In this document: piece after piece, positions 10,301 to 62,469 of the stretch
How the letters are laid out: each line of letters begins with the position of its first letter
Numbering within the stretch: the first letter of the stretch is position 1
Source: a virus
Length of the DNA stretch: 64,000 nucleotides
Virus record (IMG/VR): IMGVR_UViG_3300025840_000011
Strand: one strand, 5' to 3'
Position numbers and translations under genes: made by a program
Notes under the pieces: generated by a model
Seen by the model: the letters and a program-made list of their open reading frames with translations, nothing else
What the model was told of the DNA's origin: nothing
The model's database searches: none

Positions 10301-10306
10301 GTTTTA

Positions 10307-10335
10307 ATAATAACAAACTGGACACTATTTGTCAA
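10307..10335 (-). promoter_or_regulatory. Sigma70-type promoter TTGACA-17-TATTAT (leaderless geometry)
   Basis: -10 box ends 7 nt before the ATG at 10300. Confidence 0.75.
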
Positions 10336-15754: not shown

Positions 15755-16219
15755 TTGTCAAGAAGAATTATCAGAAATTTTATAAAAGAGGAAGACCTAC
15801 CCGAAGTACTCGACTTCGCAAACTCTCTCCCTTACTATAGAGATCGTGATCTGCCTGGCGAAGCGGGTGAGGCGGTGCGTCAAGGTGTTTTTAAGTTTAC
15901 GGGAAAACGGACAGAAAGCGTCCATACAATATGTGACATAGGAACGGACATATATAACGCAACGGGATTAAGACCAACACGTCTCTACTTCCACTGGCAT
16001 GATGCGGATCCTGAGTGGACACCGAAAATCCACGCAGACCTGTCAATGAGTGGAGTGATCTACCTTATAGGTGGTGAAGGATGTGGTACGGAAATCGATG
16101 GTGTGGTTGAAGAGTTCGAAGTTGGAAAGTTGGTTATGTACGATGGCAGAACCCCACATAGACCTCAAGGGTTTCCCGTCGATAGGTTGGTAATTACATT
16201 TTTTATAGGTGAAGAATAA
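15755..16219 (+). CDS. 2OG-Fe(II) oxygenase-like protein
   Basis: IHAD...SGVIYL...GT...H...R.VITFF (HxD...H...R). Confidence 0.7.
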   Translation: MSRRIIRNFIKEEDLPEVLDFANSLPYYRDRDLPGEAGEAVRQGVFKFTGKRTESVHTICDIGTDIYNATGLRPTRLYFHWHDADPEWTPKIHADLSMSGVIYLIGGEGCGTEIDGVVEEFEVGKLVMYDGRTPHRPQGFPVDRLVITFFIGEE

Positions 16220-16662
16220 TGACAGTTGGATTTACTGCATCGACATTTGATCTCTTACATGCGGGTCACGTCTCCATGTTGAGAGAGGCGAAGGAACAGT
16301 GTGACTACTTGATCTGTGGTCTACAGGTTGATCCCTCTTTGGATAGACCTGAGAAGAACAAACCCGTTCAGACCTTGGTCGAGAGGTACACGCAACTGGC
16401 GGGTATCAAGTACGTCGATGAGATCATTCCCTACCAGACCGAAGAAGACCTTGAAGACATTCTTAAGATGGTCAACATCGATCTCCGCATCATAGGATCG
16501 GAGTACAAAGACAAGACCTTCACAGGAAGAGCCACGTGCGCCGCGCGAGGGATTGAAATCTATTTTAACAAGAGGGACCATAGGTTCTCCACTAGTGACT
16601 TAAGAAGAAGAGTCAGTGCGAGCGAATATGGTCTTGACAACCCACCCCTTGATGTAATATAA
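16219..16662 (+). CDS. Glycerol-3-phosphate cytidylyltransferase-like (TagD family)
   Basis: STFDLLHAGH (HxGH), R.H.FSTS. Confidence 0.85.
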   Translation: MTVGFTASTFDLLHAGHVSMLREAKEQCDYLICGLQVDPSLDRPEKNKPVQTLVERYTQLAGIKYVDEIIPYQTEEDLEDILKMVNIDLRIIGSEYKDKTFTGRATCAARGIEIYFNKRDHRFSTSDLRRRVSASEYGLDNPPLDVI

Positions 16663-17335: not shown

Positions 17336-17455
17336 ATGTGGACATATGAATGTAGCGCAGGGACATACAGAGAAGAGTCCCTGCACAAATTACTGTGGAT
17401 AATTTTTAAACATCGTCTTCATCATCTAGTGGAAGACGGGAGGTTCTCTGATTAG
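17336..17455 (+). CDS. Small hypothetical protein (39 aa)
   Basis: MWTYECSAG...GRFSD; stop overlaps the gp47 GTG. Confidence 0.5.
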   Translation: MWTYECSAGTYREESLHKLLWIIFKHRLHHLVEDGRFSD

Positions 17456-18513
17456 TGAAGGTTGCCATCTTAAACGATACCCATGCGGGTATTCGTAACT
17501 CATCTGATATTTTTATGTCGTACCAAGAACGCTTCTACTCAGAAGTGTTCTTTCCATATCTGCTAGAAAATGACATCAAACAGATCCTACACCTTGGAGA
17601 CTACTACGATAACCGTAAGACAGTCAACTTCAAGGCGTTGAACCATAACCGCAAAATCTTTCTAGAGAAATTGCGGGAGTATGGTATCACTATGGATATC
17701 ATTCCGGGCAACCATGACACCTACTACAAGAACACCAACGATCTGAATTCGTTGAAAGAGTTGTTGGGTCACTACATGAATGAAGTCAACGTTATCATGG
17801 AACCTACCGTGGTTAAATACGACACTTTAGATGTCGCATTAATCCCTTGGATTAACCCTGAGAATGAGGAAGCAACACTCAAGTTTCTTTCGAAGTGCAA
17901 GGCGCCTGTCGTAGGTGCACACCTAGAACTGGTCGGGTTCGATATGCAACGTGGTATGCCCTGTCACGATGGTATGTCACCTAAACACTTCGAGAACTTT
18001 GAGATGGTGTTGTCTGGTCACTTCCATGCAAAATCGTCACAGGGAAATGTTCACTATCTGGGTTCTCAGATGGAGTTCTTTTGGAACGATTGCAATGACA
18101 AGAAGTACTTCCACATTCTTGATACTGAAACAAGAGAACTTACTCCGGTACACAATCCTATCACCATCTACGAGAAGGTGTATTACGATGCCGACAAGAT
18201 GCGTAAGTTCCAAGACCTACGATATCTTGATAATAAATTCGTTAAGTTGATCGTAGTGAAGAAGGGCGACACCTATGATTTCGAACGGTTCGTAGACCGC
18301 ATCCAGAATCAGAAGATACACGAACTCAAGATCGTTGAGGACTTCAAAGAGTTCATTGGTGAGAATGTGGGTGACCACAACATCACTATTGACGATACCG
18401 AAACTTTGGTGTATAATTATATCGACAACGTGCAGACCGATCTGGACAAGTCGAGAATCAAAAGAGAGATATCTGTGTTGATGACAGAGGCACAATCAAT
18501 GGAGGTAGTATAG
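17455..18513 (+). CDS. gp47: Recombination endonuclease subunit (Mre11/SbcD-like)
   Basis: DTH, GDYYD, GNHD, SGHFH metallophosphoesterase motifs. Confidence 0.95.
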   Translation: MKVAILNDTHAGIRNSSDIFMSYQERFYSEVFFPYLLENDIKQILHLGDYYDNRKTVNFKALNHNRKIFLEKLREYGITMDIIPGNHDTYYKNTNDLNSLKELLGHYMNEVNVIMEPTVVKYDTLDVALIPWINPENEEATLKFLSKCKAPVVGAHLELVGFDMQRGMPCHDGMSPKHFENFEMVLSGHFHAKSSQGNVHYLGSQMEFFWNDCNDKKYFHILDTETRELTPVHNPITIYEKVYYDADKMRKFQDLRYLDNKFVKLIVVKKGDTYDFERFVDRIQNQKIHELKIVEDFKEFIGENVGDHNITIDDTETLVYNYIDNVQTDLDKSRIKREISVLMTEAQSMEVV

Positions 18514-18662
18514 TGGGTAAGGGATCCAAACCAAGACCTATCAAAGATCGGAAACAGTTCAATGATAACTGGGACCGCATATTCAAAGGACAGACGCAAC
18601 AACCCAAAGGCGTCGATCAAGAAAAACTCAAAGAACAGGCGCAAGATCCAAAAAACGGTTGA
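18513..18662 (+). CDS. Small hypothetical protein (49 aa, MGKGSKPRP...NWDRIF)
   Basis: GTG overlapping the gp47 stop, SD ggagg. Confidence 0.6.
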   Translation: MGKGSKPRPIKDRKQFNDNWDRIFKGQTQQPKGVDQEKLKEQAQDPKNG

Positions 18663-18687
18663 CAAGACCTGTTTGGGATAGTATAAT
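18659..18687 (+). promoter_or_regulatory. Perfect sigma70 promoter TTGACA-17-TATAAT (leaderless geometry for gp46)
   Basis: -10 ends 7 nt before ATG 18694. Confidence 0.85.
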
Positions 18688-18693
18688 TGACCT

Positions 18694-20418
18694 ATGATTA
18701 AATTCGAAAAGATCCGGTGGAAAAATTTCCTTTCCACTGGGAATAACTTTACGGAAATAGATTTCCAATCTACCCCTACCACTCTAGTGGTGGGTCACAA
18801 CGGCGCGGGTAAGTCAACACTACTCGACGCTCTCAGTTTTGGATTGTTCGGTAAACCACACCGTAAGATATCCAAGCCTCAACTTATCAATTCCATCAAC
18901 GGAAAGGGTACACTAGTTGAGGTCTTTTTCTCAGTCGGCTCTGTTAGGTATAAGGTACTCCGTGGTATCAAACCCAACAAGTTTGAGATATGGTGCAACG
19001 ATAACATGTTGAACCAGAGTTCTCACGCCAAGGAATACCAACAGATCCTTGAGACGAATATCCTTAAACTGAACCACAAGTCGTTCCACCAGATCGTTGT
19101 ACTGGGTTCGTCTTCGTTCGTACCGTTTATGCAACTTCCGGCAAACTCTCGTAGAGATGTAATCGAAGACCTACTTGACATCAACATGTTCTCCAAGATG
19201 AACACAATTCTGAAAGAGAAGATGTCTATACTCAAGGAAAACATCCGTGAGAATGGACACGCCATTGAGGTGGTCAAGACTAAGATCAACGCACAGAAGA
19301 AGTATCTGCGAGATTTGTCGGCGCTAAACACCGCACACCGTAAGGAGAAAGAAGAATCAATCTCAACCCTTCTTAAGGAGATTAGTGAACTCCAAGACTT
19401 TAACGATAAGAACATGCAAGATGCAATGGATCGTTCTATGTCAGTGGCTTCCAAATTGCAGAAGGTTCAGACATCACGTGAGAAGTTACTTGAGTATCAA
19501 TCAACGTTCAAGTCTCAGATCAAGTCCGTAGTGAAGGAGGCGAAGTTCTTTGAAGACAACTCTGTCTGTCCTACGTGTGATCAAGATATTGCGGATGATC
19601 TGCGTGAGACTAAAAAGAATGATGCGAACAAACGTGCAAAGGATCTCAGTGAGGCGATGGGTAAGTCTGACTCTCAGATGAAAGAGTTTGATGATCAACT
19701 CGTTGAACTGCAAAAGGAGTTGGAGTCTGCCCGTGTACTACAGAATGAGGTTAACAATAACAACCAGACCATCACCAGACTTAACCAACAGATAGAACGC
19801 ATCCGTGCAGAGATCGATAACTTGGGAGATAACACTGGTGACCTCAAGGATGCAAACGATGAACTCCAAACTCTGAACAAGGACTTAGAGTCAAAACAAG
19901 ATGAGAAGTATCGTATGCACGAGGACTACTCGTATCAACAGATCAACGCTGAACTTCTTAAGGATACGGGGATCAAAACCAAGATTATCAAACAGTACCT
20001 TCCGGTCATTAACCAACTGACCAACCAGTACTTACAAATCTTAGACTTCTTTGTTCACTTCGATCTGGACGAGAGTTTCAACGAGACTATCCGTTCGCGT
20101 TTTCGTGACAGTTTCTCTTATGACTCTTTCTCTGAGGGGGAGAAACAACGTATAGACTTGTCCCTACTATTTACGTGGAGACAAGTGGCGAAGATGAAAA
20201 ACAGTGTTGCGACTAACCTACTCATCCTTGACGAGACTTTCGATTCTTCTTTGGACGATGATGGTGTAGACAACCTAATGAAGATCATACACACTCTGGG
20301 TGAAGAGACCAACGTGTTTGTTATCTCACACAAGGCGGAACTGGAAGACGCTGCGTTTCAACGCAGGATTGAATTCGTCAAAGAGAAGAACTTCAGTAAG
20401 ATGAAAGAAGCCGCATGA
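18694..20418 (+). CDS. gp46: Recombination ATPase subunit (Rad50/SbcC-like)
   Basis: GHNGAGKST, CPTC zinc hook, FSEGEKQR, LILDE. Confidence 0.96.
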   Translation: MIKFEKIRWKNFLSTGNNFTEIDFQSTPTTLVVGHNGAGKSTLLDALSFGLFGKPHRKISKPQLINSINGKGTLVEVFFSVGSVRYKVLRGIKPNKFEIWCNDNMLNQSSHAKEYQQILETNILKLNHKSFHQIVVLGSSSFVPFMQLPANSRRDVIEDLLDINMFSKMNTILKEKMSILKENIRENGHAIEVVKTKINAQKKYLRDLSALNTAHRKEKEESISTLLKEISELQDFNDKNMQDAMDRSMSVASKLQKVQTSREKLLEYQSTFKSQIKSVVKEAKFFEDNSVCPTCDQDIADDLRETKKNDANKRAKDLSEAMGKSDSQMKEFDDQLVELQKELESARVLQNEVNNNNQTITRLNQQIERIRAEIDNLGDNTGDLKDANDELQTLNKDLESKQDEKYRMHEDYSYQQINAELLKDTGIKTKIIKQYLPVINQLTNQYLQILDFFVHFDLDESFNETIRSRFRDSFSYDSFSEGEKQRIDLSLLFTWRQVAKMKNSVATNLLILDETFDSSLDDDGVDNLMKIIHTLGEETNVFVISHKAELEDAAFQRRIEFVKEKNFSKMKEAA

Positions 20419-22031: not shown

Positions 22032-22721
22032 ATGATGGACACGGTGATCTTTATTCCTGCAAGGCTGGGGAGTAAAAGACTCATCCATAAACCACTTACC
22101 AAATTGGGGGGTGTACCTCTGGTAAGACGTGTTGCGGAGGCTTGCGAAAAGTCTGGATATCCGGTTGTGGTATTGACAGACAGTAAAAGAGTCGCGGATT
22201 GTGTAAAGGGTTTTGAGGTTGTAATTGATAGTCAACACTATCATAACGGTACGGAAAGATGTGCCTCCGCTTCATACTTTCCTATGTTGGAACCCTACAA
22301 GTACATCATCAATGTCCAAGGAGACATGCCTGATGTTACCACTAACATGATTGAGACTCTGGCGCATGGTCTTCGTAACGATGAGTGGGATGTCTGTACT
22401 CTTTACACCAAGATGACAGAAGAGGAACAGTCGAACCGTAACAATGTGAAGATGGTACATAACCAAGAACTCGCACACTGGTTCGCTCGTGACATAACTT
22501 ACGGTGTACGTCACCTTGGTGTATATGGATACTCTCAACCAACCTTAAGAGAGTATGGAAACTGGGATGTTAGTCTGTATGAAGAAATTGAGAGTTTGGA
22601 ACAACTTCGATGGATTGAAAATGAAGTTGAGATTGGTGTATACGAAACTCAGTTTGATGGTATGGAGATTAACACAGTGGGTGACGTACATTCTTGGCAT
22701 ATGAGGAATAAGTTGGTATGA
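22032..22721 (+). CDS. kdsB: CMP-Kdo synthetase (3-deoxy-manno-octulosonate cytidylyltransferase)
   Basis: IPARLGSKRL..KPL, GTERC, INVQGD.P, HLGVYGY, ESLEQLRW. Confidence 0.92.
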   Translation: MMDTVIFIPARLGSKRLIHKPLTKLGGVPLVRRVAEACEKSGYPVVVLTDSKRVADCVKGFEVVIDSQHYHNGTERCASASYFPMLEPYKYIINVQGDMPDVTTNMIETLAHGLRNDEWDVCTLYTKMTEEEQSNRNNVKMVHNQELAHWFARDITYGVRHLGVYGYSQPTLREYGNWDVSLYEEIESLEQLRWIENEVEIGVYETQFDGMEINTVGDVHSWHMRNKLV

Positions 22722-23500
22722 GAATTATTGCAGGCCCATGCCAGTTCGAGTCGTTCGATATGGCACGTGAAGTTGCAGAACACTGCAAAGGTATCTGTGA
22801 CGAATATGGTATTGAGTACTACTTCAAGGCGTCCTTTGACAAAGCGAACCGTAGTAAAGGGACGAGTGCAAGGGGTGTAGGACTGAAACAATGTATGGAT
22901 CATTTCTGGAGATTGAAGGCAGAAATTCCTGAGTTGAAGACACTAACCGATGTACATGAGACTCATCAAGTCTATAACATCGCGTCAGAACATGATGAAT
23001 GTGTGGATGTCCTACAGATCCCTGCCCTCTTATCAAGACAGACGGATTTGATCAAAGCCGCATCTCTCAGTGGTAAGATCGTTAATATCAAGAAGGGTCA
23101 GTTCATGTCTCCCTATGATTGTCAAGATGTCTTGGACAAGGCGTCCGGTGCAAGGGAAGTTTGGTTGACAGAACGGGGAACTTCTTTTGGTTACAACAGA
23201 TTGGTGGTGGACTTCGTGGGTCTCAACTACATGATCAATAACTACCCCGATGTGGTGTTTGACGTGACTCACTCTATCCAAAACCCCGCAAAGGTGGAGA
23301 CTTCGGATAGGTCCGCCATCACCCCTCTCGCCTGCGCGGCCGCCGCAATGGGGGTCCAGAACTTCTTTTTTGAGGTACATCCGGACCCCGATAACGCAAA
23401 ATCTGATGGACCCAACTCTCTCCATCTATCTGATTTTAAACAACTTGTCTGTTCTCTTGAAAAAATTTCAAAAAAACGCTTGACTTTTCTTGCGGAGTAG
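22718..23500 (+). CDS. kdsA: Kdo-8-phosphate synthase
   Basis: IAGPC, KASFDKANRS, TDVHE, QIPA, NIKKGQF, ERGTSFGY, DVTHS, EVHPDP..A.SDG. Confidence 0.94.
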   Translation: MRIIAGPCQFESFDMAREVAEHCKGICDEYGIEYYFKASFDKANRSKGTSARGVGLKQCMDHFWRLKAEIPELKTLTDVHETHQVYNIASEHDECVDVLQIPALLSRQTDLIKAASLSGKIVNIKKGQFMSPYDCQDVLDKASGAREVWLTERGTSFGYNRLVVDFVGLNYMINNYPDVVFDVTHSIQNPAKVETSDRSAITPLACAAAAMGVQNFFFEVHPDPDNAKSDGPNSLHLSDFKQLVCSLEKISKKRLTFLAE

Positions 23501-26162: not shown

Positions 26163-26419
26163 TGAGTAAAGATCGATTTGATTTAGAACAATCTATCATG
26201 GAATGTTGGAATGTCACCGAAGATATTAATATGGTGACCGAACATTTTATGGACAGTCCTAAGTGGGAACATATACCACCTGATGTTGCGGATGCTATGT
26301 GTAACAAGTATCTTGGTATCAAGGAACTTTATGAGATTCGTTTTCAAAGGTTGTGGGATACCTTTACAGAATGTTTCGATCTAGATAGGAATTCTAGAGG
26401 AGAGAATCTACGTGAGTAA
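26159..26419 (+). CDS. Hypothetical protein
   Basis: 86-aa ORF overlapping both neighbours; DRFDLEQ.IM.CW. Confidence 0.65.
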   Translation: MMSKDRFDLEQSIMECWNVTEDINMVTEHFMDSPKWEHIPPDVADAMCNKYLGIKELYEIRFQRLWDTFTECFDLDRNSRGENLRE

Positions 26420-26834
26420 GTTTGATAGAAATTTGCACTGGACAACGGAGTGGAGTGAGAAAGTCTTATTGGGTATTATAGGTACACTCACCTTTGGCGC
26501 TGCAATACAATACCTGTATGGTATGTACATGAACCTGTCAATTGAACTGTCAGATCTGTTCATGTTGTTTATCTACGCAGAGGTTCTAGGTATGGTTGGT
26601 GCGTTCTATAGTACTACACGTATTCCCGTAACCCTACCTATCATTATTGCGATTACCGCACTGTGTCGATTAATCATCCTACATAGTAAGGAGATGCAGG
26701 AGATGCAACTACTCGCTGAGGGTGGGGCGATTCTAATTCTATCTGCTGCGGCATACTTGATGTCACTAAAGGACAAACTCAGTTTAGAAAAGATGAGGAT
26801 TCGTGATGGACAAGATGAAGAGAATTTGGTTTAA
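26412..26834 (+). CDS. PsiE-family (phosphate-starvation-inducible) membrane protein
   Basis: Four TM segments; DL..LFIY.E...MV..F....RIPV.LPI.IAITAL.RLII. Confidence 0.8.
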   Translation: MSKFDRNLHWTTEWSEKVLLGIIGTLTFGAAIQYLYGMYMNLSIELSDLFMLFIYAEVLGMVGAFYSTTRIPVTLPIIIAITALCRLIILHSKEMQEMQLLAEGGAILILSAAAYLMSLKDKLSLEKMRIRDGQDEENLV

Positions 26835-27567: not shown

Positions 27568-27986
27568 ATAAGTGGGATGCTGCTCATATGACCTCTGCGG
27601 AAGTCTACGCAAACCTTTCGTCTGCAAGACGGGCGAAGGTTGGTTGTGTTATTGTGAAGGACAACCGCATCGTGTCTATCGGGTATAATGGTATGCCTAG
27701 TGGTTGGGATAATAACTGTGAGTATGGTCTTGATGCAGAACCGACGATCCTGAGAACCAAACCCGAAGTGTTACATGCAGAGACCAATGCAATTGCAAAG
27801 GTCGCCCGTAGTAACGAGTCTTGTGAAAACGCATCCTTGTATACTACGGTTGCCCCCTGTTTGGACTGTGCAAAACTTATCTACCAGTCTGGAATATCGA
27901 AAGTGTTTTGGAGAAACGAGTATCCACGTGGAGAACTGGGTCTAAAGTTTCTTTCAAAGTGTGATATAGAAGTAACCCAAATATGA
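27564..27986 (+). CDS. cd: dCMP deaminase
   Basis: VG..IV, GYNG.P.G, HAE.NAI, PCxxC. Confidence 0.93.
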   Translation: MNKWDAAHMTSAEVYANLSSARRAKVGCVIVKDNRIVSIGYNGMPSGWDNNCEYGLDAEPTILRTKPEVLHAETNAIAKVARSNESCENASLYTTVAPCLDCAKLIYQSGISKVFWRNEYPRGELGLKFLSKCDIEVTQI

Positions 27987-28744
27987 CAACCGCAGATGAT
28001 TTATATGCAAAAGAACTGAGAAAGGTTCTGCGGCATCGCCTCAGGGGAACGATGACCCCCATAGAAAATGTCTTGTACTTCCCAAACAACATCGATGTTA
28101 GGATATGTCCTAAGAATGGTATGAGTAGTTTGAAGTGGGCTATGTTGTATGTCTACGGTGTCCCACAAGATCAGTCTGATCGTGTGAGTCTGACTATGGG
28201 TACGAAAGTTTGGAGGATGGAAGATATTAAGAAACATGGACATAAACCAGACTTACCTTTTCGTAAGGACAGTTACAAAACTTGTGTTTCAAGAGATCCC
28301 ATCAAAAGGTTCATGTCCGCATGTGAGTATATCAAGACTGAGTATGCGAGCTCGGCGGAGATGTTGTCAACTTCGAAGTCATTAACTGTCGAACAACTAG
28401 AACGTTTGTCGAGACTCTCAGATGTAAACCCACTTCCAGATTCTTTGGATGATATTATAGACGGTGTGTGGACTGGTGAAATACATAACTCACACTTCTT
28501 TACGCAGACATACTTTCACGGTAACCGTGGTCAGTATAACAAGATTTGGAGTATGAGTGATTTCAAACGGATGATGGAATGGCTCAGAACCGAAACCAAG
28601 TGCAGTAGAAAGATTGATAAGATACATTCGAACTATACATCCGGTCAATGGTTTGGAGGCGTTGAACTCTTGACACCAGACCAGAAAAAACGTATAATGC
28701 GTATTTACGAAGAGGATTATGATTATGGATGGACAGAAGATTAG
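27983..28744 (+). CDS. Sulfotransferase-family protein
   Basis: PKNG.SSLK (5'-PSB), RDP..RF.S (3'-PB), HF.TQ, Y.ED. Confidence 0.75.
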   Translation: MTTADDLYAKELRKVLRHRLRGTMTPIENVLYFPNNIDVRICPKNGMSSLKWAMLYVYGVPQDQSDRVSLTMGTKVWRMEDIKKHGHKPDLPFRKDSYKTCVSRDPIKRFMSACEYIKTEYASSAEMLSTSKSLTVEQLERLSRLSDVNPLPDSLDDIIDGVWTGEIHNSHFFTQTYFHGNRGQYNKIWSMSDFKRMMEWLRTETKCSRKIDKIHSNYTSGQWFGGVELLTPDQKKRIMRIYEEDYDYGWTED

Positions 28745-32253: not shown

Positions 32254-34737
32254 ATGAATCAACCAATGTTTTACACTTCCGTGGTCCGGTACGGCAGTAA
32301 CATCCTGTTCCGTGGGTTTGCGGAGAACGGAAAAAAACTTCAAACCAAAGTCCCCTACAAACCTACCCTGTACGTGCAGTCCGACAAGAGACAATCGGGG
32401 TGGAAGGCGATTGACGGTACTTCTGTCGAACCTCTCAAGTTTGACTCCATGAAGGAGGCGACTGAGTTCCAGAAACGTTACGAGGACGTACCCAACTTCA
32501 AGGTCTACGGGATGAACAACTTCGTGTCTCAGTTCATTGCAGACATGTTCCCTACCCCTATCGAATTCAACCGTGACTGGATCGATGTGTGCACCATCGA
32601 CATTGAGGTCGCATCTGACGAAGGGTTCCCCGAACCCGACAAGGCAGATCATCCGGTCATCGCCATCACTATCAAGAACCCCAACGGTCCCTATCGCGTC
32701 TGGGGTCTGTATGACTACAATGCGGGTGAGGATGTGATCTACGAGAAGTGCGACTCCGAAGCGCAACTCCTCATGAAGTTCGTCGATCACTGGTTCCGTA
32801 ACCAACCCGACATCGTGACCGGATGGAACACACGATTCTTCGACATTCCCTATCTGGTCAACCGTATTGGTAAAACCATTGGCGCGGACATGGTGAAGAA
32901 ACTTTCACCGTGGGGTCTGGTACGTGAAGGTAACGTAACCATCAACGGAAAGAAACAACAGGAGTACACCCTCGAAGGTATCCAACACCTCGACTATCTA
33001 GAAATCTTCAAGAAGTTCACCTACAACACTCTGGGTCAACAGGAGTCCTATCGACTGGACCACATCGCCCACGTAGTACTGGGTGAGGGTAAACTATCCT
33101 ACGAAGAACACGGTACACTGTACTCCCTGTACAAGACTGACTTCCAGAAGTTCATTGACTACAACATCAAGGACGTGGAACTGGTCGAGAAACTCGACGA
33201 GAAACTTGACCTGATCTCTCTGGTCCTGACCATGGCGTATCGCGGTGGTGTGAACTACAACGACACGATGGGGACCACAAACATCTGGGACACCATCATC
33301 TACCGCATCTTGAACGAACAGAAAGTTGCAGTACCACCCAAGGTCGAGAAGGTCAAGACATCGTATCCAGGCGGATACGTCAAGGAACCTCAAGTCGGTT
33401 CCCATGACTGGGTGACATCGTTCGACTTGAACTCACTGTACCCGAACATCATTGTCCAGTACAACATGTCACCTGAGACTGTCCTTGATGGTTTCTACAA
33501 TGACGTGTCCGTGGACGCATTCCTTTCCGGCGACATCGATGTGTCCGGTAGTCCTTTCTCTGTCGCACCTACCGGAATTAAGTTTACTCACGAACGTGAG
33601 GGTGTGATCCCCAACATCATTAAGAAATACTATGACGAACGCCGTGTGGTCAAGAAGGAGATGTTGCGACTACAACAAGAATACCAGAACAATCCCACAC
33701 GGGAACTGGACAACAAGATCACGTCACTGAACAACCAACAGATGGCGATCAAGATTCTGATGAACTCACTCTACGGTGCGTTGGGTAATCGGTGGTTCCG
33801 ATACTTTGACCAACGTGTTGCGGAGTCGATCACCCTTGCGGGACAACTCGCAATCAAGTGGGCGGAACGTGCGGTCAACGATGAGATGCAAAAACTTCTC
33901 AAGACGGAAGAAGACTACGTTGTTGCAATTGACACCGACTCTGTTTACATTCGGATGGGTGATCTTGTTGACAAGTTCAACCCGAAGGATCCTGTAAAGT
34001 TCCTTGACAAGATTTGTTCCGAACACTTCGAGAAAGTATTGTCTAAATCCTATGCGGAGATGGCGAGAGTCACCAGTGCAATGGTCAACCGTATGGAGAT
34101 GGGACGCGAGGTAATCGCAGACCGTGGTATCTGGATGGCGAAGAAACGTTACATCCTCAACGTGCACAACAACGAGGGTGTGCAGTACGCACAACCCAAA
34201 CTCAAGTTGATGGGTATCGAAGCGGTCAAGTCATCTACGCCTCAGGTTGTGCGTGACAAGTTTCAAGAAATCTTTCGGGTCATCATAGAAGGTACTGAGT
34301 CAGACACACAGTCCTTTATTGGGAACTTTAAGACCCAATTTGGGACTCTTCCTCCCGAAGACGTGTCGTTCCCTCGTGGGGTTTCGGAGATCACCAAGTG
34401 GCAGGATCGACAGACCGTCTACAAGAAGGGTTGTCCTATCCACGTGCGTGGTGCACTGGTCTACAACGATACGGTTAAGAAGAACGCACTTGACAAGAGG
34501 TACGTCTACGTCCAGAACGGAGAGAAGATCAAGTTCGTCTACCTGAAGATGCCCAACCGTCTGGGTGAGAACGTGGTGTCGTTCCCCTTGAACCTACCCA
34601 AGGAGTTCGGGTTGCATGACTTCATCGACTATGACATGATGTTCCGGAAGACGTTCCTAGATCCTCTCGAACCAATCCTTGATGCAGTCGGGTGGGCGGC
34701 AGAACCACGTGCAACCCTAGAAGACTTTTTCTCTTGA
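32254..34737 (+). CDS. gp43: Family B DNA polymerase
   Basis: DIE (ExoI), [16 protein letters not shown]...NS.YG, DTDS, KKRY. Confidence 0.98.
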
Positions 34738-34763
34738 CAGAAACCGCGAAGATTTGTTATGAT
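34734..34763 (+). promoter_or_regulatory. Sigma70 promoter TTGACA-18-(TGn)TATGAT (leaderless geometry)
   Basis: -10 ends 7 nt before ATG 34770. Confidence 0.7.
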
Positions 34764-34769
34764 GTGTCT

Positions 34770-35708
34770 ATGTTTGAACTAACACTATTCCGCAATCAGT
34801 TTGATAACAAGACTCACAATCGGGTCCAGTTCGATTCGTGGGATAAATTTGTTAAGTGGTTGTATCGCATATCACAAGTGAAAGGAGAGAAGGGTGGAAA
34901 TAATTCTAGTCCTCTTATTAGTCCTGCTGTTTTCGAAATGGGTTCGAAACGTTCTAATAAATCTACTAGTCATTGGGGTGGTTGGTGCGCTGTTGATGTT
35001 GATGATCACAATTTTGGTGTGGATCTTTCAACCCTTGAGCGAAGACTGCAAGATCAATTCGGAGGATACGACTATGTTGTGTACAATACTGCGTCAAGTA
35101 GATCAGACAACCTCAAGTTTCGGATCGTCTTCCGACTCGACGAACCCGTCGAAAACGAAAGGATCAAATCCTTCTGGTATGCTCTGAATACAGAACTAGG
35201 TGAGATCGGAGATCCTCAGACAAAAGACCTTGCACGTATGTACTATGTGCCGGCGCAGTATCCTAACGCAACATCTTTCTTCTTTGCGAACTCTGGTTCT
35301 GCACTCAACGTATCTGAGTTGATTGCAAAACATCCTTACCACGAGAAGACAGGTAATTCTTTCCTAGATAGATTACCAGAAAGTTTACAGAAGGCAGTGA
35401 TAGAACATCGTAAGTCCCAACTGGACAACACTAACATAGTATGGACATCGTATCACGATTGTCCGTTCTGGCCTAAGTCGTTAGGTGCGGAATATATACA
35501 GATCAGTGGTACAGGTTGGTATCACAAAATGTATCAGATCATGGTCGCTGTTGCGGGCCGCGCAACAGAAAGTAACTATCCCATAACTGCACAACAGATT
35601 GCGGATATGTGTAAACAGTTCGACGCTGAAACTGGTAACTGGTACGAGAACAGACCTCTCATTGTAGAGGCCGACAGAGCATTGGAGTACATTTACCGAA
35701 ATGGATAA
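34770..35708 (+). CDS. Primase-polymerase (AEP-like) protein with PriCT-like C-terminus
   Basis: SPA.F, AVDVD (DxD), T.SS....KFRIVF.L..PV, D..TKD.ARMYYVP. Confidence 0.7.
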   Translation: MFELTLFRNQFDNKTHNRVQFDSWDKFVKWLYRISQVKGEKGGNNSSPLISPAVFEMGSKRSNKSTSHWGGWCAVDVDDHNFGVDLSTLERRLQDQFGGYDYVVYNTASSRSDNLKFRIVFRLDEPVENERIKSFWYALNTELGEIGDPQTKDLARMYYVPAQYPNATSFFFANSGSALNVSELIAKHPYHEKTGNSFLDRLPESLQKAVIEHRKSQLDNTNIVWTSYHDCPFWPKSLGAEYIQISGTGWYHKMYQIMVAVAGRATESNYPITAQQIADMCKQFDAETGNWYENRPLIVEADRALEYIYRNG

Positions 35709-36699
35709 TAAAAGAATATTAGTCACCGGAGCTGCAGGGTTCATAGGATCTCAGTTGTGTCTAAGACTCACAGGAATGGGTCATGATGTTATTGGATGCG
35801 ATAACTGGAACAGTCATCTCTATGATCCTTGGTTGAAAGTTAAAAGACATACTAACTTTGGTATGCAGATCATGGACATGGACATACGTGATGAACTGAT
35901 GCTGGGTAACCTTTTAAACGATCAACGTTTGATACCGGATGTTGTGGGCGAACCCTTTGACTATGTTATACATCTCGCCGCACACGCAGGGGTGCGTGAC
36001 TCGTTTGGGAAAGAATCAGAGTATCACTCAAACAACATTGATGGTACACAGAACCTAATTAATCTGTTCGAAAACTACAGTCCCCAAACAAAATTCATCT
36101 ATGCATCTACCAGTTCTGTATATGGAGGAACTCCTATTTCAGAGAATGGGTGGAAGGAAGACTTTGTTCAGGCGCACCAACTTAACGCCTATGCATATAC
36201 CAAATACATCAACGAGTGTCAGTTCGGAATTTCCAAGTTGTTTAGTACAGGACTACGTTTCTTTACCGTGTACGGACCTTGGGGTAGACCAGACATGGCA
36301 CTCTTCCAATTTACGAAATCAACCCTTGACGGAACGCCAATAAAGGTGTATAATTATGGGGATATGAAGCGGGACTTCACCTACATCGATGATATCCTTG
36401 ACGGGATCTGCATCGTTTTGGCGAACGTGGAATCTGGAGTCATTCCCAATAATGAGATATTTAATATTGGTAGAGGCGAACAGGTTCAACTGATGGACTT
36501 CATCTCAGAGATTGAGAAGAACGTTGGTAAGGAAGTTACGAAGGAGATGGTTGCGAAACATCCCGCCGATACAAAAGAGACGTGGAGTAACACAGACAAA
36601 CTTCAAAAACTAGGATATACACCGAAGGTCAGTATTGCAGAAGGTGTTGCAAAATTCTATGAGTGGTACAAAAATTTTTATGACGTAGAGGAGACATAA
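35701..36699 (+). CDS. NAD-dependent epimerase (UDP-glucuronate 4-epimerase-like)
   Basis: VTGAAGFIG, HLAA.AGVR.S, YxxxK, LRFFTVYGPWGRPDMA, RDFTYIDD. Confidence 0.92.
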   Translation: MDNKRILVTGAAGFIGSQLCLRLTGMGHDVIGCDNWNSHLYDPWLKVKRHTNFGMQIMDMDIRDELMLGNLLNDQRLIPDVVGEPFDYVIHLAAHAGVRDSFGKESEYHSNNIDGTQNLINLFENYSPQTKFIYASTSSVYGGTPISENGWKEDFVQAHQLNAYAYTKYINECQFGISKLFSTGLRFFTVYGPWGRPDMALFQFTKSTLDGTPIKVYNYGDMKRDFTYIDDILDGICIVLANVESGVIPNNEIFNIGRGEQVQLMDFISEIEKNVGKEVTKEMVAKHPADTKETWSNTDKLQKLGYTPKVSIAEGVAKFYEWYKNFYDVEET

Positions 36700-36701
36700 T
36701 A

Positions 36702-37733
36702 ATGGCAGATAATTTTGATGACTTTGTTCCGAAGACTTCGGACGGTCCATCTCAGGCAGACAAACAGAAACCTATTAGTCCGGATAACCCTTTCAAGTTG
36801 GGTATTGTCGGTCATGGGTTTGTAGGTAAGGCAGTAGAGTATGCATTCCTACATCCACTAGTGGACTTGCAGATTGCAGATCCAAAGTATGGTCCAGAGG
36901 CATCCATCGATGCGATGGTTGAGTTCGAACCACACTGTGTGTTTGTGTGTGCACCCACACCCATGAACCCCGACAGTGGATTTGTTGATGCATCTATCGT
37001 AGAGGATGCGGTACTCAAACTGATCGAACACACCGAGTCTCTTGTTGTTGTCAAATCAACAATCACTCCGGACGTTATTGATCGACTCTACAACTCTATG
37101 TTTGAGGACGGTATTGATCGTTTCGTGTACAACCCTGAGTTCCTTACGGAGAAGTCGGCAGAGGAACAGTTTGTAAATGCAGAGTTCCACGTACTTGGTG
37201 GTAGTGAACGTGCAACTGCCGAACTGGTAGAAATCTATGACGTGTTCAGTCTGTGTAAGTCTAACGAGTACTTCCGCATGGCGGCCGCAGAGGCATCGTT
37301 CGTGAAGTATGCAATCAACACTTACCTTGCAACTAAGGTTACCTTCTTTAACCAACTGTATGACCTGATCAATGCGTGGGGTTGTTCTTACAACATCGTT
37401 ACACGTGCGGTTGGCCGAGATCCTCGTGTTGGTGTTGGACACACCCGTGTGCCGGGTTATGACCGCAAACGTGGGTTTGGTGGTGCATGTTTACCCAAGG
37501 ATGCAACCGCATTCTTAAAGTTCTCTGAGGCAGAGGACCAAGAGGGTAACAAGATTAGTTTCGATTTAATCGAAAAAGTCCTTGACATAAACAGCCGATA
37601 TCGTGCATACTATGAGCTAGATGAACGAGAGAAAGCGAACAATATTACTTTTGGAGATGTGAATAATGAGCGTGATGGACAAACTGAAGAAGAACTCGAA
37701 GATCAAGACAACGGAGGTACTGTCGGAGAGTAA
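36702..37733 (+). CDS. UDP-glucose/GDP-mannose dehydrogenase family protein (short form)
   Basis: GHGFVG, VKST, NPEFL, K...N..LA.K..F.N, GFGGACLPKD; appears to lack the C-terminal UDP-binding domain. Confidence 0.88.
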   Translation: MADNFDDFVPKTSDGPSQADKQKPISPDNPFKLGIVGHGFVGKAVEYAFLHPLVDLQIADPKYGPEASIDAMVEFEPHCVFVCAPTPMNPDSGFVDASIVEDAVLKLIEHTESLVVVKSTITPDVIDRLYNSMFEDGIDRFVYNPEFLTEKSAEEQFVNAEFHVLGGSERATAELVEIYDVFSLCKSNEYFRMAAAEASFVKYAINTYLATKVTFFNQLYDLINAWGCSYNIVTRAVGRDPRVGVGHTRVPGYDRKRGFGGACLPKDATAFLKFSEAEDQEGNKISFDLIEKVLDINSRYRAYYELDEREKANNITFGDVNNERDGQTEEELEDQDNGGTVGE

Positions 37734-45595: not shown

Positions 45596-46171
45596 ATGCG
45601 CTTAGTAATTAGCAGCGTGGTGTTACTTACATCATTAATTTTTGGAGTCGCAGTCAATGCACAGGACGCTGACGAAACTCCGACTCAAACAGTTGAACCT
45701 ATCATAACTGAGAGTACCGTTACTACCAACGGTAAAACGACTACTATTCTCAGATCACCCCCTGCCTCTGCGATCACCCCGACAATCAACACGTCGAACT
45801 CAGACTTGTGTACCTTTGGAGTTGCGGGTGCAATTCAAACTCAGATTCTTGGTGTCTCTACAGGTACTCAGGTAACGGATGAAAATTGTGAGAGGTTAAA
45901 GAATGCAAAGACGCTCTATGATATGGGAATGAAAGTGGCCGCCGTGTCGGTTATGTGCCAAGACGAAAGAGTCTTTGATGCAATGATGCACGCCGGAACA
46001 CCGTGTCCATATGATGGTCTAATAGGTCCAGCGGCAAAGGCGGCGTGGGAAATCAACGAAGAGGAACAACCCAATGCAGAAGACTACGACAAAGGGTTTA
46101 CAAATGACAAGAAAACCTTACTGGGCGCTGGTGGTGTCCTTAGTATTCTTCTCATGCTTCTGGTCATCTAA
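45596..46171 (+). CDS. Cassette 1 gene A: exported Cys-containing protein with C-terminal hydrophobic anchor
   Basis: Signal peptide ending AVNA; PPASAI.P...DLC...NCERLK...MCQD...GTPCP; ends GAGGVLSILLMLLVI. Confidence 0.8.
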   Translation: MRLVISSVVLLTSLIFGVAVNAQDADETPTQTVEPIITESTVTTNGKTTTILRSPPASAITPTINTSNSDLCTFGVAGAIQTQILGVSTGTQVTDENCERLKNAKTLYDMGMKVAAVSVMCQDERVFDAMMHAGTPCPYDGLIGPAAKAAWEINEEEQPNAEDYDKGFTNDKKTLLGAGGVLSILLMLLVI

Positions 46172-47000
46172 CGTACATGCACAAACCGTTTTCGGGACAA
46201 CCGGAAATGCGGCGCAAGATGGTCTTACATGGGTAATGACCAACGTCCTGCCTCAACAGACAGGACTTACAGTTAATGGTGTTGTGTACAGATACACAAC
46301 CATAAAGAACCCCGAAGACGATATGATCGTCTACGTGCAGAACGAGGATGCGGAGAACGAAGGTCAATACATTTTTCGATCCGCAGACGATTGGTCTGGA
46401 TTGCCAGGCAGTTCGATAAGGAGATTGGTTCCTGTCTCTAACATACCTCGAAGTAGGTGGGGAGACGGATCTATTGTTGTGGAAGGTGAAGGTAAAGTAA
46501 CGGATCCTACTGTCCTCTACAACTATCAGTACGATCCTTGTTTTGGTGTAACTGATAGACCGGAGTGCCCGAATTATATTCCGTCCACTCCAACCGTACC
46601 GGAAATTGTAGCGTATGATCCAATGGACGATCAGTTCGTACAAGAAGAACTGGAAAAAGAAACTGAAACTAAAGATGAGGAGGAAGAAGAGAGAGATAGA
46701 GAACAGATTGAGGAGGGTGGTGAATCAAAACCAAACCTGAGAAGGAAATCCCTCGAAGAGATGTTAGGTATTGTTGAGAGGTCACTTATCGCGTCCGCTG
46801 ACCAACAGATACACAACCAACTACTCTTACTAAACTTCGTACCAACTTTTTATTATGATACACTCCCCGACACTAAATACGAGGAGACCATAACTCTACA
46901 GGATGCGAATTTACCTGACAATACTAACGGGTATCGTGTAAACTTTGCCCAAGACCAACTACATCAAGAGATGGTCAATCTACAGTATGAACAACCATAA
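46104..47000 (+). CDS. Cassette 1 gene B: exported protein (beta-rich N-domain, acidic linker)
   Basis: Signal ending VHA; Y.YD.C....P.CP; paralogue at 60230. Confidence 0.8.
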   Translation: MTRKPYWALVVSLVFFSCFWSSNVHAQTVFGTTGNAAQDGLTWVMTNVLPQQTGLTVNGVVYRYTTIKNPEDDMIVYVQNEDAENEGQYIFRSADDWSGLPGSSIRRLVPVSNIPRSRWGDGSIVVEGEGKVTDPTVLYNYQYDPCFGVTDRPECPNYIPSTPTVPEIVAYDPMDDQFVQEELEKETETKDEEEEERDREQIEEGGESKPNLRRKSLEEMLGIVERSLIASADQQIHNQLLLLNFVPTFYYDTLPDTKYEETITLQDANLPDNTNGYRVNFAQDQLHQEMVNLQYEQP

Positions 47001-47013
47001 AAAGGAACATTAA

Positions 47014-47517
47014 ATGTTAAAGAAAGTACTACCATTAACGGCGTTGTCTCTTGTTCTCGCAACAAGTGCGAATGCAACTAATGTCGATATCACGGGTACT
47101 GTAGATTCTAAGTGTGTGGTGACAACAGACACTCTAGGTGTCTTTGGAAACCCGACACCAAGTACACTCAGTACTGACGCAGTTGACGGGGGTGTTGAAC
47201 CCATCGTTCGCTACGATGTTATTCAGGCTGATTATTACAAGGCGACAATAACAACTCCAGACCAATTCGTTGAGAGTCCTGCTTTGGACGATGTTGTGAC
47301 TTGGAGTGGAACAGTTTCGGTCAGTGAAGTTTCGGATCCCGCGATGGCGGCATACGACACTGAGAAGAGACTCTACAACAACGTAACAGAAATCGATCTA
47401 ACGGTTGCAGGAAGTACTTGGTTCAAAGTATCTTCAGAAGCCGACTATGGATTTGACAAGGCATTACCCGCTGGTATCTATCGTGCGACAGTACAGGCGG
47501 AGTGTATCGCAATCTAA
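47014..47517 (+). CDS. Cassette 1 gene C: pilin/fimbrial-subunit-like exported protein
   Basis: Signal ending ANA; I.G.V.SKC N-terminal strand; C-terminal P.G.Y.A.V.A.C strand; about 145-aa mature beta protein. Confidence 0.6.
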   Translation: MLKKVLPLTALSLVLATSANATNVDITGTVDSKCVVTTDTLGVFGNPTPSTLSTDAVDGGVEPIVRYDVIQADYYKATITTPDQFVESPALDDVVTWSGTVSVSEVSDPAMAAYDTEKRLYNNVTEIDLTVAGSTWFKVSSEADYGFDKALPAGIYRATVQAECIAI

Positions 47518-47895
47518 ATGATACGTTTTATTATGTTATTGACAGGATTGTTCTTGAGTGGGTCAGCGATGGCCCACTCTTGGACACCAACATATCCAAA
47601 ACTCGAAAGAAGTTTTGTTGAGAATGTGATGCAGACTGAGATGTTACTGATCAATCGAAGAAGTGATGTTGAGTTCTTCGAGATTAGTGTTTACGACTCT
47701 GAGTGGAACCCCGTGAAATTCGCCACGAGCGAAAAGATAATTAGGGTTCCTTACTTAGAGAGAAGAGAAGTAATGGTGTATATCCGACAACAAGATGTTG
47801 GTATTGCAGATTACATATGTACAAAAACTAAAATTGTCAGACAAAGGACTACCGGAACGTCCGTGTCTTCTAGGATATGTTCGAGATTGAAATGA
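47518..47895 (+). CDS. Cassette 1 gene D: periplasmic chaperone-like (single PapD-N-like Ig domain)
   Basis: Signal ending AMA; H.WTPTYPK, L.N.R.DV.FFEI.VYD, ICT/ICS Cys pair. Confidence 0.55.
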   Translation: MIRFIMLLTGLFLSGSAMAHSWTPTYPKLERSFVENVMQTEMLLINRRSDVEFFEISVYDSEWNPVKFATSEKIIRVPYLERREVMVYIRQQDVGIADYICTKTKIVRQRTTGTSVSSRICSRLK

Positions 47896-48389
47896 AAAAA
47901 TTACTCGTTATTGTAGCGTTATTGTTTTCTGCTGAGACCGCAGCGCAGGATTCTATACCCGCAACAACCACTACAACAATAATTGAGAGAGCGCCCACTA
48001 GTAACAGCGCGAGTTCTCTCAATCTTAATATGCCCAACTCTCCCCAAAGTTTTCAACAGGACCGTGTACGTGCAGGAGACTTCGAGTGTTCTGCCGCGAT
48101 TGGTTCTGCAACAAATCTAGAGTTTGGTGTGGTGGGTATCCTCAATCAGGATGACCCTTACTACGGAACTTACTATGGTACGGACATAGGTCCACCCACG
48201 AGATTTGGAAATCAAGCGTTCACACGAGACGTGGGTGTTTACGCACGGATCAATATTCCTATCGGTGCACCAAAAGAGAGACCCAACTGTAACTTGTTAT
48301 ACAAACTAGAGTTGGAGAAGAAACGACTAGAGGTCTTAAGACTACAACAGGAACTACAAAACTTACGCAACTTGCAATTCGAAGAATAA
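47892..48389 (+). CDS. Cassette 1 gene E: exported protein with amphipathic beta-hairpin and C-terminal coiled coil
   Basis: ECSAAIGS..N.EFGVVGI...D.GVY.RI.IPIG...NC..LY.LELEKKRLE. Confidence 0.75.
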   Translation: MKKLLVIVALLFSAETAAQDSIPATTTTTIIERAPTSNSASSLNLNMPNSPQSFQQDRVRAGDFECSAAIGSATNLEFGVVGILNQDDPYYGTYYGTDIGPPTRFGNQAFTRDVGVYARINIPIGAPKERPNCNLLYKLELEKKRLEVLRLQQELQNLRNLQFEE

Positions 48390-48429
48390 TAAATACAGTT
48401 AAACTAACTACCAAAAAGAGAATAATAAT

Positions 48430-48897
48430 ATGGTAGAACTAGCTGTCGCGGTGCAAGTCGCTGGTGCCGCATATAATGCAATTAAGGGAGCAGTGGAAAA
48501 GGGTAGGGAAGCCCAAGATATGATTGGCGCGTTCGGAAAGTTTTTCGATTCTATGGACGCAGTGAGTGAAGCAAACATCAAGAACCAATCTACCGCAGGA
48601 GTTCAGAAACTTTTTAGTGGTAACAGTGTAGAGGCGCAGGCGTTGGAGATCACCGCCGCGAAACACAAGATTGCATGGATGGAAAAAGAACTCAGAGAGT
48701 ACCTGATCTATTCCGGACAAGGCGCCTTCTACGAAGACATGATGGAAGAACGCAAAAGGATACGAAGGTATCGTCAGAACGAAATGCGTAGGAAGGCGCA
48801 GGCCAAGGCGTTCTGGATTGATGTTGCGGCGCTTGTTTTTGGTATAGGAATAAGTATATTTGTGATCACAGGACTCATCACAGTAATCGTAAGTTAA
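48430..48897 (+). CDS. Cassette 1 gene F: helical protein with C-terminal TM segment
   Basis: SVEAQAL, E.EL.EYL.Y.GQ..FY.DM..ER; paralogue at 62470. Confidence 0.8.
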   Translation: MVELAVAVQVAGAAYNAIKGAVEKGREAQDMIGAFGKFFDSMDAVSEANIKNQSTAGVQKLFSGNSVEAQALEITAAKHKIAWMEKELREYLIYSGQGAFYEDMMEERKRIRRYRQNEMRRKAQAKAFWIDVAALVFGIGISIFVITGLITVIVS

Positions 48898-48906
48898 GGA
48901 TAACAG

Positions 48907-49386
48907 ATGGCAGAATTTGAATTCGCGGGAATGACCTTCAGAGGTGGTAGGATAATGGTTATCCTCACCGCCCTGTCAACCTTGGGTGGTGCATCTTGGG
49001 GTGCATTTGAGTTCTATAAAGACTACATGGATATGAAAGAGATCATTGCGAACATCGATACCACAGAGATTGAGAACCGCAATAGACTAATCGAGCAGAA
49101 GTTAGACGATGCGTTGATTCAAGTTGACGCCGCAGTAGACTATTCCAGAACTATCAAGAACGACTTACGAGACGATTTCAATCGCATGGAACGCAACGTT
49201 GACCGTGTGGAGGATCAAGGGAGAACTCTAGAAACCGTAGTTGAAGATATGATAGATAGGGCTGACGAACGATTTGATACCAAACGAGATGCACTCGTTG
49301 TGGATACTGATCGTAAACTTCAACAGGTAGAGGAAAGACTCGACGCAAAAATACAGGCGTTTTTAGATAATCCTTTATCAAATTAG
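48907..49386 (+). CDS. Cassette 1 gene G: N-terminal TM plus coiled-coil protein
   Basis: MAEFEFAGMTFRGG..LSTLGG..WGAFEFY...LDNPL; paralogue at 63224. Confidence 0.8.
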   Translation: MAEFEFAGMTFRGGRIMVILTALSTLGGASWGAFEFYKDYMDMKEIIANIDTTEIENRNRLIEQKLDDALIQVDAAVDYSRTIKNDLRDDFNRMERNVDRVEDQGRTLETVVEDMIDRADERFDTKRDALVVDTDRKLQQVEERLDAKIQAFLDNPLSN

Positions 49387-57928: not shown

Positions 57929-57930
57929 AC

Positions 57931-58425: not shown

Positions 58426-58445
58426 TGTAGTCGTAGGGAGACGAC

Positions 58446-59573: not shown

Positions 59574-59576
59574 ATA
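59569..59576 (+). promoter_or_regulatory. Late-like promoter ACTAAATA upstream of cassette copy 2
   Basis: Same octamer as upstream of copy 1. Confidence 0.45.
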
Positions 59577-59697
59577 TTCGTGGTCTCCGTTATGTGCTTG
59601 ACCTGACGTTCCTGTTTTATTTCCTTTTGTAATTACGAATAATACTATGCAAATCTGATTTGATTTGTTGGACAAAACTACATTAGGAAATGGTAAA

Positions 59698-61611: not shown

Positions 61612-61614
61612 ACT

Positions 61615-62468: not shown

Positions 62469-62469
62469 A

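Follow-up and report, generated by a model that had tools for sequence, protein, structure and literature searches.

The 64,000-nucleotide window analysed here (IMG/VR record IMGVR_UViG_3300025840_000011), assigned to a T4-like phage by its open reading frame (ORF) annotation, avoids a three-base DNA word over most of its length. From the first position to 55.78 kb, RGC and GCY (R, purine; Y, pyrimidine) are avoided, AGC and GCT most strongly, and YGCR is spared. The avoidance is found in every reading frame and is a habit of this phage group. We tentatively read it as the mark of long-standing selection on the DNA itself. The elements in which it is clearest are the following:

1-55780, no strand assigned: RGC/GCY-avoiding domain, depleted in all reading frames, with junction words 8-10x below a synonymous shuffle

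32254-34737, plus strand: gp43 DNA polymerase gene, lowest word density, 0 GCT and 2 AGC

17455-20418, plus strand: genes of the gp47/gp46 recombination nuclease, with strong depletion (2.8 and 4.6 sites per kb)

Observed/expected ratios (O/E) take their expectation from base composition. A second null model shuffles synonymous codons within each gene of the 1-55.78 kb domain, keeping the protein and the gene's codon usage. For gp43, base composition predicts about 77 AGC/GCT sites and the synonymous shuffle 41±4.7, none of its 1000 rounds giving fewer than 27, against the two observed. Between 9 and 55 kb, the bottom two places among the 64 trinucleotides go to AGC (O/E 0.20) and GCT (0.26), followed by GCC (0.44) and GGC (0.57); the GC dinucleotide stands at 0.58, and GT, AC, TG and CA are raised. 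An earlier note on this DNA, based on a manual scan, had reported no GCT and about two AGC in gp43 where tens were expected, and that count is exact. Its other tallies agree with ours: about two GCT at 10.3-12.4 kb (GCT 2 and AGC 0 in 10300-12400), fewer than ten sites in gp46 (8 in 18694-20418) and roughly 30 in 56693-57928 (21 GCT plus 9 AGC). The note had drawn the domain at 9-55 kb; that interval is depleted, but the true extent is 1-55.78 kb. Depletion persists when amino-acid content and codon usage are controlled, and it is not uniform across the window, with an O/E of about 0.8-0.9 in the 55.78-64 kb block.

Across codon junctions, the genes of the domain contain 26 xxG|CTx words against 206±11 in the shuffle, 26 xAG|Cxx against 262±11, 99 xxA|GCx against 230±11 and 22 xGC|Txx against 42±5. 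These counts bear out the suggestion that the avoidance crosses junctions and goes beyond a bias in alanine codons. In all, 203 GCT and 150 AGC are left in these genes.

Removal of the word works through the choice among synonymous codons, which depends on the neighbouring codon. Lys, Glu and Gln codons end in G in 46-71% of cases overall and in 2-12% before a codon that starts with C. Leucine is encoded by CTN in 77% of cases (72-80% after codons ending in A, C or T) and in 13% after codons ending in G. A-ending codons fall from 23% generally to 9% before Ala, and xGG|C is almost never formed. In four-fold degenerate families T-ending codons lead all others (28-58%), the exception being Ala, for which GCT is the least used codon at 12%. 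The 36 Ala codons of gp43 comprise 18 GCG, 16 GCA, 2 GCC and no GCT, and conserved Ala residues encoded by GCT in the non-depleted relative L010 are encoded by GCA, GCG or GCC in the window. At G|CT junctions the deficit is divided about equally between alteration of the preceding G (149) and replacement of Leu CTN by TTR (133).

The word is broader than the GCT/AGC pair named in the earlier note: that pair is the most depleted, but GGC and GCC are also avoided, and YGCR is not. Among strand-symmetrised NGCN words, the O/E is lowest for AGCT (0.11), followed by AGCC/GGCT (0.22), AGCA/TGCT (0.24), GGCC (0.30), AGCG/CGCT (0.48), GGCA/TGCC (0.63) and GGCG/CGCC (0.99); the spared words are CGCA/TGCG (1.22) and TGCA (1.38). 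A codon-controlled table of junction words agrees with this ranking. The low value for CGCG (0.36) is a separate feature that lies outside the YGCR rule.

Three other descriptions of the target were considered and rejected. A union of longer restriction sites containing AGC or GCT does not describe it, as every NAGC and AGCN context is depleted. Breaks arising from close nicks on opposite strands do not either, as close opposite-strand pairs are in excess, mostly from AGCT. The third is a general avoidance of palindromes. Twelve of 58 six-base palindromes are wholly absent from 1-55780, among them ACCGGT, CGATCG, CGTACG, CTCGAG, GACGTC, GGTACC and GTCGAC; about ten of each are expected, and close to no absences. 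The absence is common to depleted and non-depleted relatives; it supports word avoidance as a general habit of the group and leaves the clade trait unexplained. GATC is enriched in the same interval (1.46).

Both DNA strands are affected alike. On the sense strand AGC and GCT show the same degree of depletion, 4-mer counts are similar to those of their reverse complements, and genes on the minus strand are depleted like those on the plus strand. This strand symmetry and the equal behaviour of minus-strand genes argue for selection at the level of DNA and not of mRNA. They also bear on a reading in which an endoribonuclease, such as an MqsR-type GCU cutter, selects at the RNA level, or in which plain codon or amino-acid bias is responsible. 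MqsR-type toxins do cut at GCU, and the degree of depletion does differ among genes. An RNA agent would nevertheless need two unrelated specificities to deplete AGC and GCU equally on the sense strand, along with the paired 4-mers, and codon bias is excluded by the shuffle nulls. Strand symmetry and shuffles together largely refute this reading, to which we give almost no credence.

The window belongs to a clade of uncultured marine T4-like phages that are abundant. Its nearest named genome is Phage C48C1 (OQ984149), whose gp43 is 71% identical in amino-acid sequence. IMG/VR relatives are numerous in coastal and estuarine metagenomes (gp43 67-86% identical), and identity to the gp43 of true cyanomyophages is about 45%. 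Depletion is clade-specific and variable. The gp43 O/E lies between 0.03 and 0.58 in 79 of 81 clade orthologues, with the window lowest at 0.03; only L010 and L011 are near 1. Pooled over the clade, the core replication genes are all depleted (0.22-0.50), and Hsp20 is the least depleted at 0.74. The 147-kb relative G001 is milder (0.4-0.7), and its depletion is again deepest in gp43 and gp46/47. Farther out, G010 and G011 (gp43 60-61% identical) are not depleted, with an O/E of about 1. Isolated cyanomyophages range from 0.25 to 1.41 for gp43, and values are 1.25-1.36 for the T4-type phage RB27, 1.13-1.20 for the KVP40-like Vibrio phage XZ1 and 1.22-1.43 for Rhizobium phage RHph_I1_18. A literature search on C48C1 and on GCT/AGC depletion in phages found nothing relevant.

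Two side observations concern the gp43 loci of these relatives. Directly after gp43, both non-depleted clade members carry a 155-amino-acid ORF (L010:12493-12960 and L011:4857-5324) that is itself poor in AGC/GCT, at 8.5-12.8 sites per kb where its neighbours have about 25, which would suit an import from a depleted genome. In L277 (Synechococcus phage ACG-2014f, 6489-9505), gp43 is annotated as two pieces with two small ORFs between them.

Mutation offers a different route to such a pattern. The cytosine of RGCY could be hypermutable or prone to damage, through M.CviJI-type host methylation or a single-stranded DNA deaminase, and decay to GTT/AAC, with selection also removing the word where the change or lesion does harm. 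Loss of CpG in vertebrates and APOBEC footprints in animal viruses are analogues. The low GC dinucleotide together with raised GT, AC, TG and CA speaks for decay, as does the greater depletion of frames in which C>T is synonymous (0.10-0.13 versus 0.43-0.52 elsewhere). Over the 81 gp43 orthologues, no word has a stronger negative correlation with AGC/GCT than AAC/GTT (rho -0.67, slope -0.82), and the compensating GTT/AAC excess that the earlier note proposed to look for is thus present. The genetic code, however, forces this gain under selection and mutation alike, so that it does not discriminate between them.

What separates the two accounts is the base that changes. The word is altered at its first, second and third positions, so that conversion of the central C to T cannot alone account for its removal, and selection on the word fits better than decay. 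Neither the third-base change of conserved Ala GCT nor the altered A of A|GCN can be produced by C>T, and escape through the first base is as frequent as escape through C>T. The phages themselves carry no cytosine methyltransferase: no PF00145 C5-methyltransferase was found in C48C1 (complete), G001 (87% complete), G006 (93%) or the other relatives, 10 related records in all, and what adjoins gp43 in C48C1 is an adenine methyltransferase of Dam type. No member of the ThyA/deoxycytidine monophosphate (dCMP) hydroxymethylase family (PF00303) was found in C48C1, G001, G006, G007 or G005. The window encodes a dCMP deaminase, ThyX and a MazG-like enzyme, which are ordinary genes of deoxythymidine triphosphate supply. 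The earlier idea that the depletion is the mutational footprint of a GpC cytosine modification made by the phage is not supported, given the conserved Ala GCT codons that became GCA or GCG, the altered A before GCN and the lack of PF00145 and PF00303 in near-complete relatives. In its general form, with a host methylase or deaminase as the source, we consider decay unlikely.

The depletion has a sharp boundary at 55.78 kb. The features on either side of it include:

773-2611, plus strand: tail sheath gp18, GCT nearly confined to the in-frame Ala codon (19/1/0 by frame)

7164-8498, plus strand: major capsid protein gp23, GCT in frame only (20/0/0), in-frame AGC 0

45916-49386, plus strand: native six-gene array, depleted, pooled O/E 0.30

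55781-56629, plus strand: first gene without depletion, 20 sites per kb, sharp compositional boundary at the gene start

56693-63703, plus strand: non-depleted module, imported, 67-98% identical in amino acids and about 82% in nucleotides to contig G008

60230-63703 (also delimited as 59532-63703), plus strand: second copy of the six-gene array, inside that module, pooled O/E 0.92

The earlier note took gp18 and gp23 to use GCT freely. This is true of the in-frame Ala codon, but off-frame GCT and all AGC are rare in both genes. The pattern fits translational selection for the T-ending Ala codon overriding avoidance in very highly expressed genes.

Sequence comparison with the IMG/VR contig G008 identifies the block at 56.7-63.7 kb as a module exchanged with, or imported from, a non-depleted lineage. 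The nucleotide identity of about 82% extends over 6.3 kb, whereas the gp43 of G008 is only 53% identical to that of the window, and immediately left of the boundary identity to the corresponding G008 genes is about 30%. In G008 the 17-kb part that matches (L187) shows hardly any depletion, with an O/E of 0.85; G008 gp43 stands at 0.54. High identity within the block, low identity in gp43 and the flank, and weak depletion in the matching stretch together argue for an exchanged module.

The six-gene array provides an internal control, since six native genes (45.9-49.4 kb) can be compared with six imported homologues. The two copies are collinear and share 38-62% amino-acid identity. A three-fold gap in word density between homologous genes of one genome indicates that the trait reflects the history of the lineage and not the function of the proteins. 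DNA acquired lately retains the word density of its donor, and the trait can therefore serve to spot recent imports.

From the avoidance, its frame independence, the motif ranking, the distribution over the clade and the mosaic structure, all of them observed, we infer selection at the DNA level and an agent that exerts it. The account that we tentatively prefer, at somewhat short of an even chance, is long-standing selection against RGC/GCY, and AGC/GCT most, by a DNA-targeting activity that is met during infection and does harm that rises with the number of sites. The earlier note had proposed selection against a short strand-symmetric target. That proposal fits the use of all synonymous routes, the strand symmetry and the twelve missing palindromes. 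The data point to a DNA-acting activity with a three-base target, and our best guess is a host nuclease or nickase. DarT-type ADP-ribosyltransferases were considered as the agent and rejected for lack of a motif match: DarT2 recognises TNTC-like motifs and DarT1 lacks a consensus (PMC11543638).

Such an agent would read the word on each strand separately and could be a very frequent restriction-type cutter or nickase, or another defence that attacks DNA at a short motif. If each site carried a small chance p of harm, survival would vary approximately as (1-p)^N and each removal would gain about p, a benefit that should amply suffice for selection where phage populations are very large. Depletion would build gradually, and completeness would never be required. 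A phage with no cytosine methyltransferase would rely on avoidance of the word. The genes that have been resident longest and are needed first for replication and repair (gp43, gp46/47) would be the cleanest; damage to genes of first-round replication and recombinational repair might not be rescuable, which would place the deepest depletion there. In highly expressed late genes GCT would persist solely as the Ala codon that translation prefers, and recent imports would still stand at the normal word frequency of the donor.

Several points weigh against selection by such an agent. AGCT is not rarer than its halves predict (18 versus 15 at 9-55 kb; 24 versus 22 at 1-55.78 kb), so that the unit is the 3-mer on each strand and not the palindrome, and leftover sites are not kept apart; both findings run counter to the predictions of a classical palindromic type II enzyme or of a requirement for pairs of nicks. 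The hundreds of sites that remain exclude an all-or-none cutter: with about 350 AGC/GCT left in 55.8 kb, an efficient enzyme would still be lethal, and a weak effect per site is needed. Exchange of modules with non-depleted phages means that the lineages probably shared hosts at times, which is awkward for a purely host-imposed pressure. We know of no bacterial enzyme with RGC/GCY specificity. The only natural frequent cutters listed are CviJI, SetI and FaiI (PMC3681635).

Avoidance of words by phages is usually discussed for restriction sites of 4-8 bp. Purging of a three-base word by 5-30 fold over a whole clade would imply a type of selective agent that has no described counterpart in bacteria. 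The pattern supplies the specificity to be expected of it, RGC/GCY with YGCR spared.

A candidate closer to the phage is encoded by a cassette at the left of the window:

9062-12417, minus strand: three-gene cassette, mobile, encoding a 412-amino-acid protein, a BGT-like protein (327 amino acids) and a DruA/DUF4338-like protein (370 amino acids)

The 370-amino-acid protein belongs to the DruA/DUF4338 family, with a phrog_19197 match of 1.7e-156, a sub-threshold Pfam DruA match and matches to atlas clusters composed 74-99% of DruA. In the 327-amino-acid protein (10325-11308) the resemblance to clusters of T4 beta-glucosyltransferase (BGT; T4-Gluco-transf) is one of language-model features only (0.96-0.97), with no Pfam or PDB sequence match; PDB sequence searches with all three cassette proteins gave no match. 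For the DruA-like protein, an AlphaFold prediction built on 12 aligned sequences reached a mean pLDDT confidence score of 53, too low for use. Kinship with Mu Mom, raised by one GenBank homologue labelled 'mom', found no support in a profile comparison (probability 0.2%).

The cassette itself holds almost no copies of the word (2 sites in 2.1 kb). Copies with 83-88% amino-acid identity lie right after gp43 in L017, L020, L024 and L026-L029, where gp43 itself is only 72% identical; these comparisons show the cassette to be mobile and younger than the depletion trait. The DruA-like gene also occurs alone, in the gp44/gp62 slot of several cyanophages and in the post-gp43 slot of HTVC008M, and relatives that lack it carry a Dam-type methyltransferase in the same slots. 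This sharing of slots suggests a role in DNA modification.

The earlier note linked the depletion to this BGT-like island, and what emerges is a statistical association with no causal evidence. Among cyanophages the median gp43 O/E is 0.43 with the DruA-like gene and 0.67 without it (one-sided p = 0.023). In the clade and its outliers the medians are 0.12 and 0.74 (p = 0.008), and overall p = 0.0016; none of the three comparisons is corrected for phylogeny. Gene presence among the 81 loci gives weak signals, with the DruA-like gene accompanying stronger depletion and the Dam-type methyltransferase weaker depletion (p = 0.02 for each, uncorrected, from partial loci). C48C1, which is complete and has neither a DruA-like nor a BGT-like gene, is depleted without the island, and S-SKS1 and RB11-B are likewise depleted without a DruA-like gene (0.25-0.36 for the three). 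HTVC008M has both genes and is barely depleted (0.63-0.82).

These observations can be read as self-avoidance. A marking or cutting enzyme borne by the phage, either this cassette or another nuclease, would act on host or competitor DNA or on the phage's own, and loss of the word would keep self-inflicted damage or the expense of modification low. The lower gp43 O/E of genomes with the DruA-like gene, the near absence of the word from the cassette and the placement of that gene in the slot of a DNA methyltransferase agree with this, and a phage-borne cause would account for a clade-wide trait found over many environments. Set against it are the mobility and youth of the cassette, the three depleted phages without the gene, the barely depleted HTVC008M, the phylogenetically uncorrected tests, and a DruA-like fold left unmodelled and without profile similarity to Mu Mom. 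We judge self-avoidance quite unlikely.

Under selection by a host activity, the cassette may instead be a second response to the same pressure and not its cause. DUF4338 is a component of Druantia. It is conceivable, if doubtful, that coastal marine bacteria or their T4-like phages possess a three-base DNA-acting system (RGC/GCY, with AGC/GCT foremost), powerful enough to have remodelled entire phage genomes, to which the DruA/DUF4338-like and BGT-like proteins belong, as a sequence-specific modifier protecting the sites that are left or as a weapon. This would give the first functional handle on DUF4338.

A host agent of another sort would be a CRISPR system, with the word as a protospacer-adjacent motif (PAM) whose loss leaves fewer sites that can be targeted or acquired. 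A length of 3 nucleotides, recognition on either strand, the lack of a palindrome effect, a graded benefit and lineage-specific occurrence are consistent with a PAM. The gain per PAM removed would, however, be tiny while hundreds stay. No PAM of RGC/GCY form is known to us, and the published PAM depletion known to us is much weaker than 5-30 fold. We regard this explanation as very unlikely. Two reports document PAM depletion in phages (PMC4246573, PMC12174588).

The remaining candidate is the start site of the phage's own primase:

34692-35708, plus strand: gp61-type primase, encoded in the window

T4 gp61 primes at 5'-GTT and 5'-GCT on a single-stranded template (PMC10359460). GCT is thus one of two recognition triplets of the T4 enzyme, and its reading on single strands, both of which serve as lagging-strand templates, matches a 3-mer that acts on each strand. 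Other T4-like phages, namely RB27, Vibrio XZ1 and Rhizobium RHph_I1_18, are nevertheless not depleted (1.1-1.4), nor are L010 and L011 with an orthologous primase; GGC and GCC are avoided as well, and the 5' neighbour matters. We know of no cost of surplus primase sites and hold this origin to be highly improbable. Ranked as agents, a host cutter, nickase or other defence comes first, a methylated or deaminase-prone cytosine second, self-avoidance by the phage third, a CRISPR PAM fourth and the phage's own primase site fifth.

The gene order of the window is that of a T4-like phage. ORFs at 0.8-8.5 kb encode tail sheath, tail tube, portal, prohead protease, scaffold and major capsid proteins, and the replication and recombination module downstream comprises UvsW, gp55, gp47/46, gp45, gp44, gp62, RegA, Hsp20, gp43, primase, UvsX and gp41. 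The gp43 gene (32254-34737) is the GC-richest stretch of the window (50% versus 44%), with about three times as many CG as GC dinucleotides. A homologue of PsiE (phosphate-starvation-inducible protein E) lies within the replication module at 26412-26834. Sugar-nucleotide genes are located at 16219-16662, 22032-23500, 27983-28744, 35701-37733 and 58446-59573; they encode a KdsB-like CMP-KDO (3-deoxy-D-manno-octulosonate) synthetase, a KdsA-like KDO-8-P synthase, two more cytidylyltransferases, a sulfotransferase-like protein, an NAD-dependent epimerase and a UDP-glucose dehydrogenase-like protein. In a search for the host, the closest cellular KdsA sequences were only about 50% identical and came from unrelated gut and marine metagenome-assembled genomes, indicating no host.

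Among known systems, the pattern resembles restriction-site avoidance by virulent phages that lack a methyltransferase, in being strand-symmetric and independent of frame, in the 12 missing palindromes and in the lack of a cytosine methyltransferase. It differs in a word of three bases, in the lack of extra depletion of AGCT and in the hundreds of sites that are left, which make any protection other than all-or-none. As expected if a type II enzyme with a palindromic target were at work, the word is scarcer on both strands than amino-acid and codon constraints explain, but neither extra depletion of the palindrome nor near-elimination is observed. With CpG decay and APOBEC footprints the window shares a short cytosine-centred word that is depleted in a graded manner, gain of the C>T product and many remaining sites; unlike them, it is changed at all three positions, conserved Ala codons included, in phages without a methyltransferase. 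T4-type hydroxymethylcytosine with glucosyl modification differs in that no PF00303 member was found in five relatives. The BGT-like gene of the window is recognised by language-model features only. Contrary to what a T4-type primase site would lead one to expect, other T4-like phages with a gp61-type primase show no such avoidance.

The nearest known specificity is that of the chlorovirus enzyme CviJI (RGCY), which is among the very few natural cutters at 2-3 bp (PMC3681635). It is an algal-virus enzyme with self-protection by methylation. No PF00145 methyltransferase was found in 10 related records, and no search was made for an R.CviJI homologue in the phage or its relatives. In the window, moreover, A/T flanks count far more than G/C. 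The order of the sites nonetheless resembles that of CviJI and its relaxed form CviJI*, which extends towards GC. RGCY is lowest (0.11-0.30), RGCR/YGCY is intermediate (0.24-0.99), and YGCR, the class that CviJI* does not cut, is spared (1.2-1.4).

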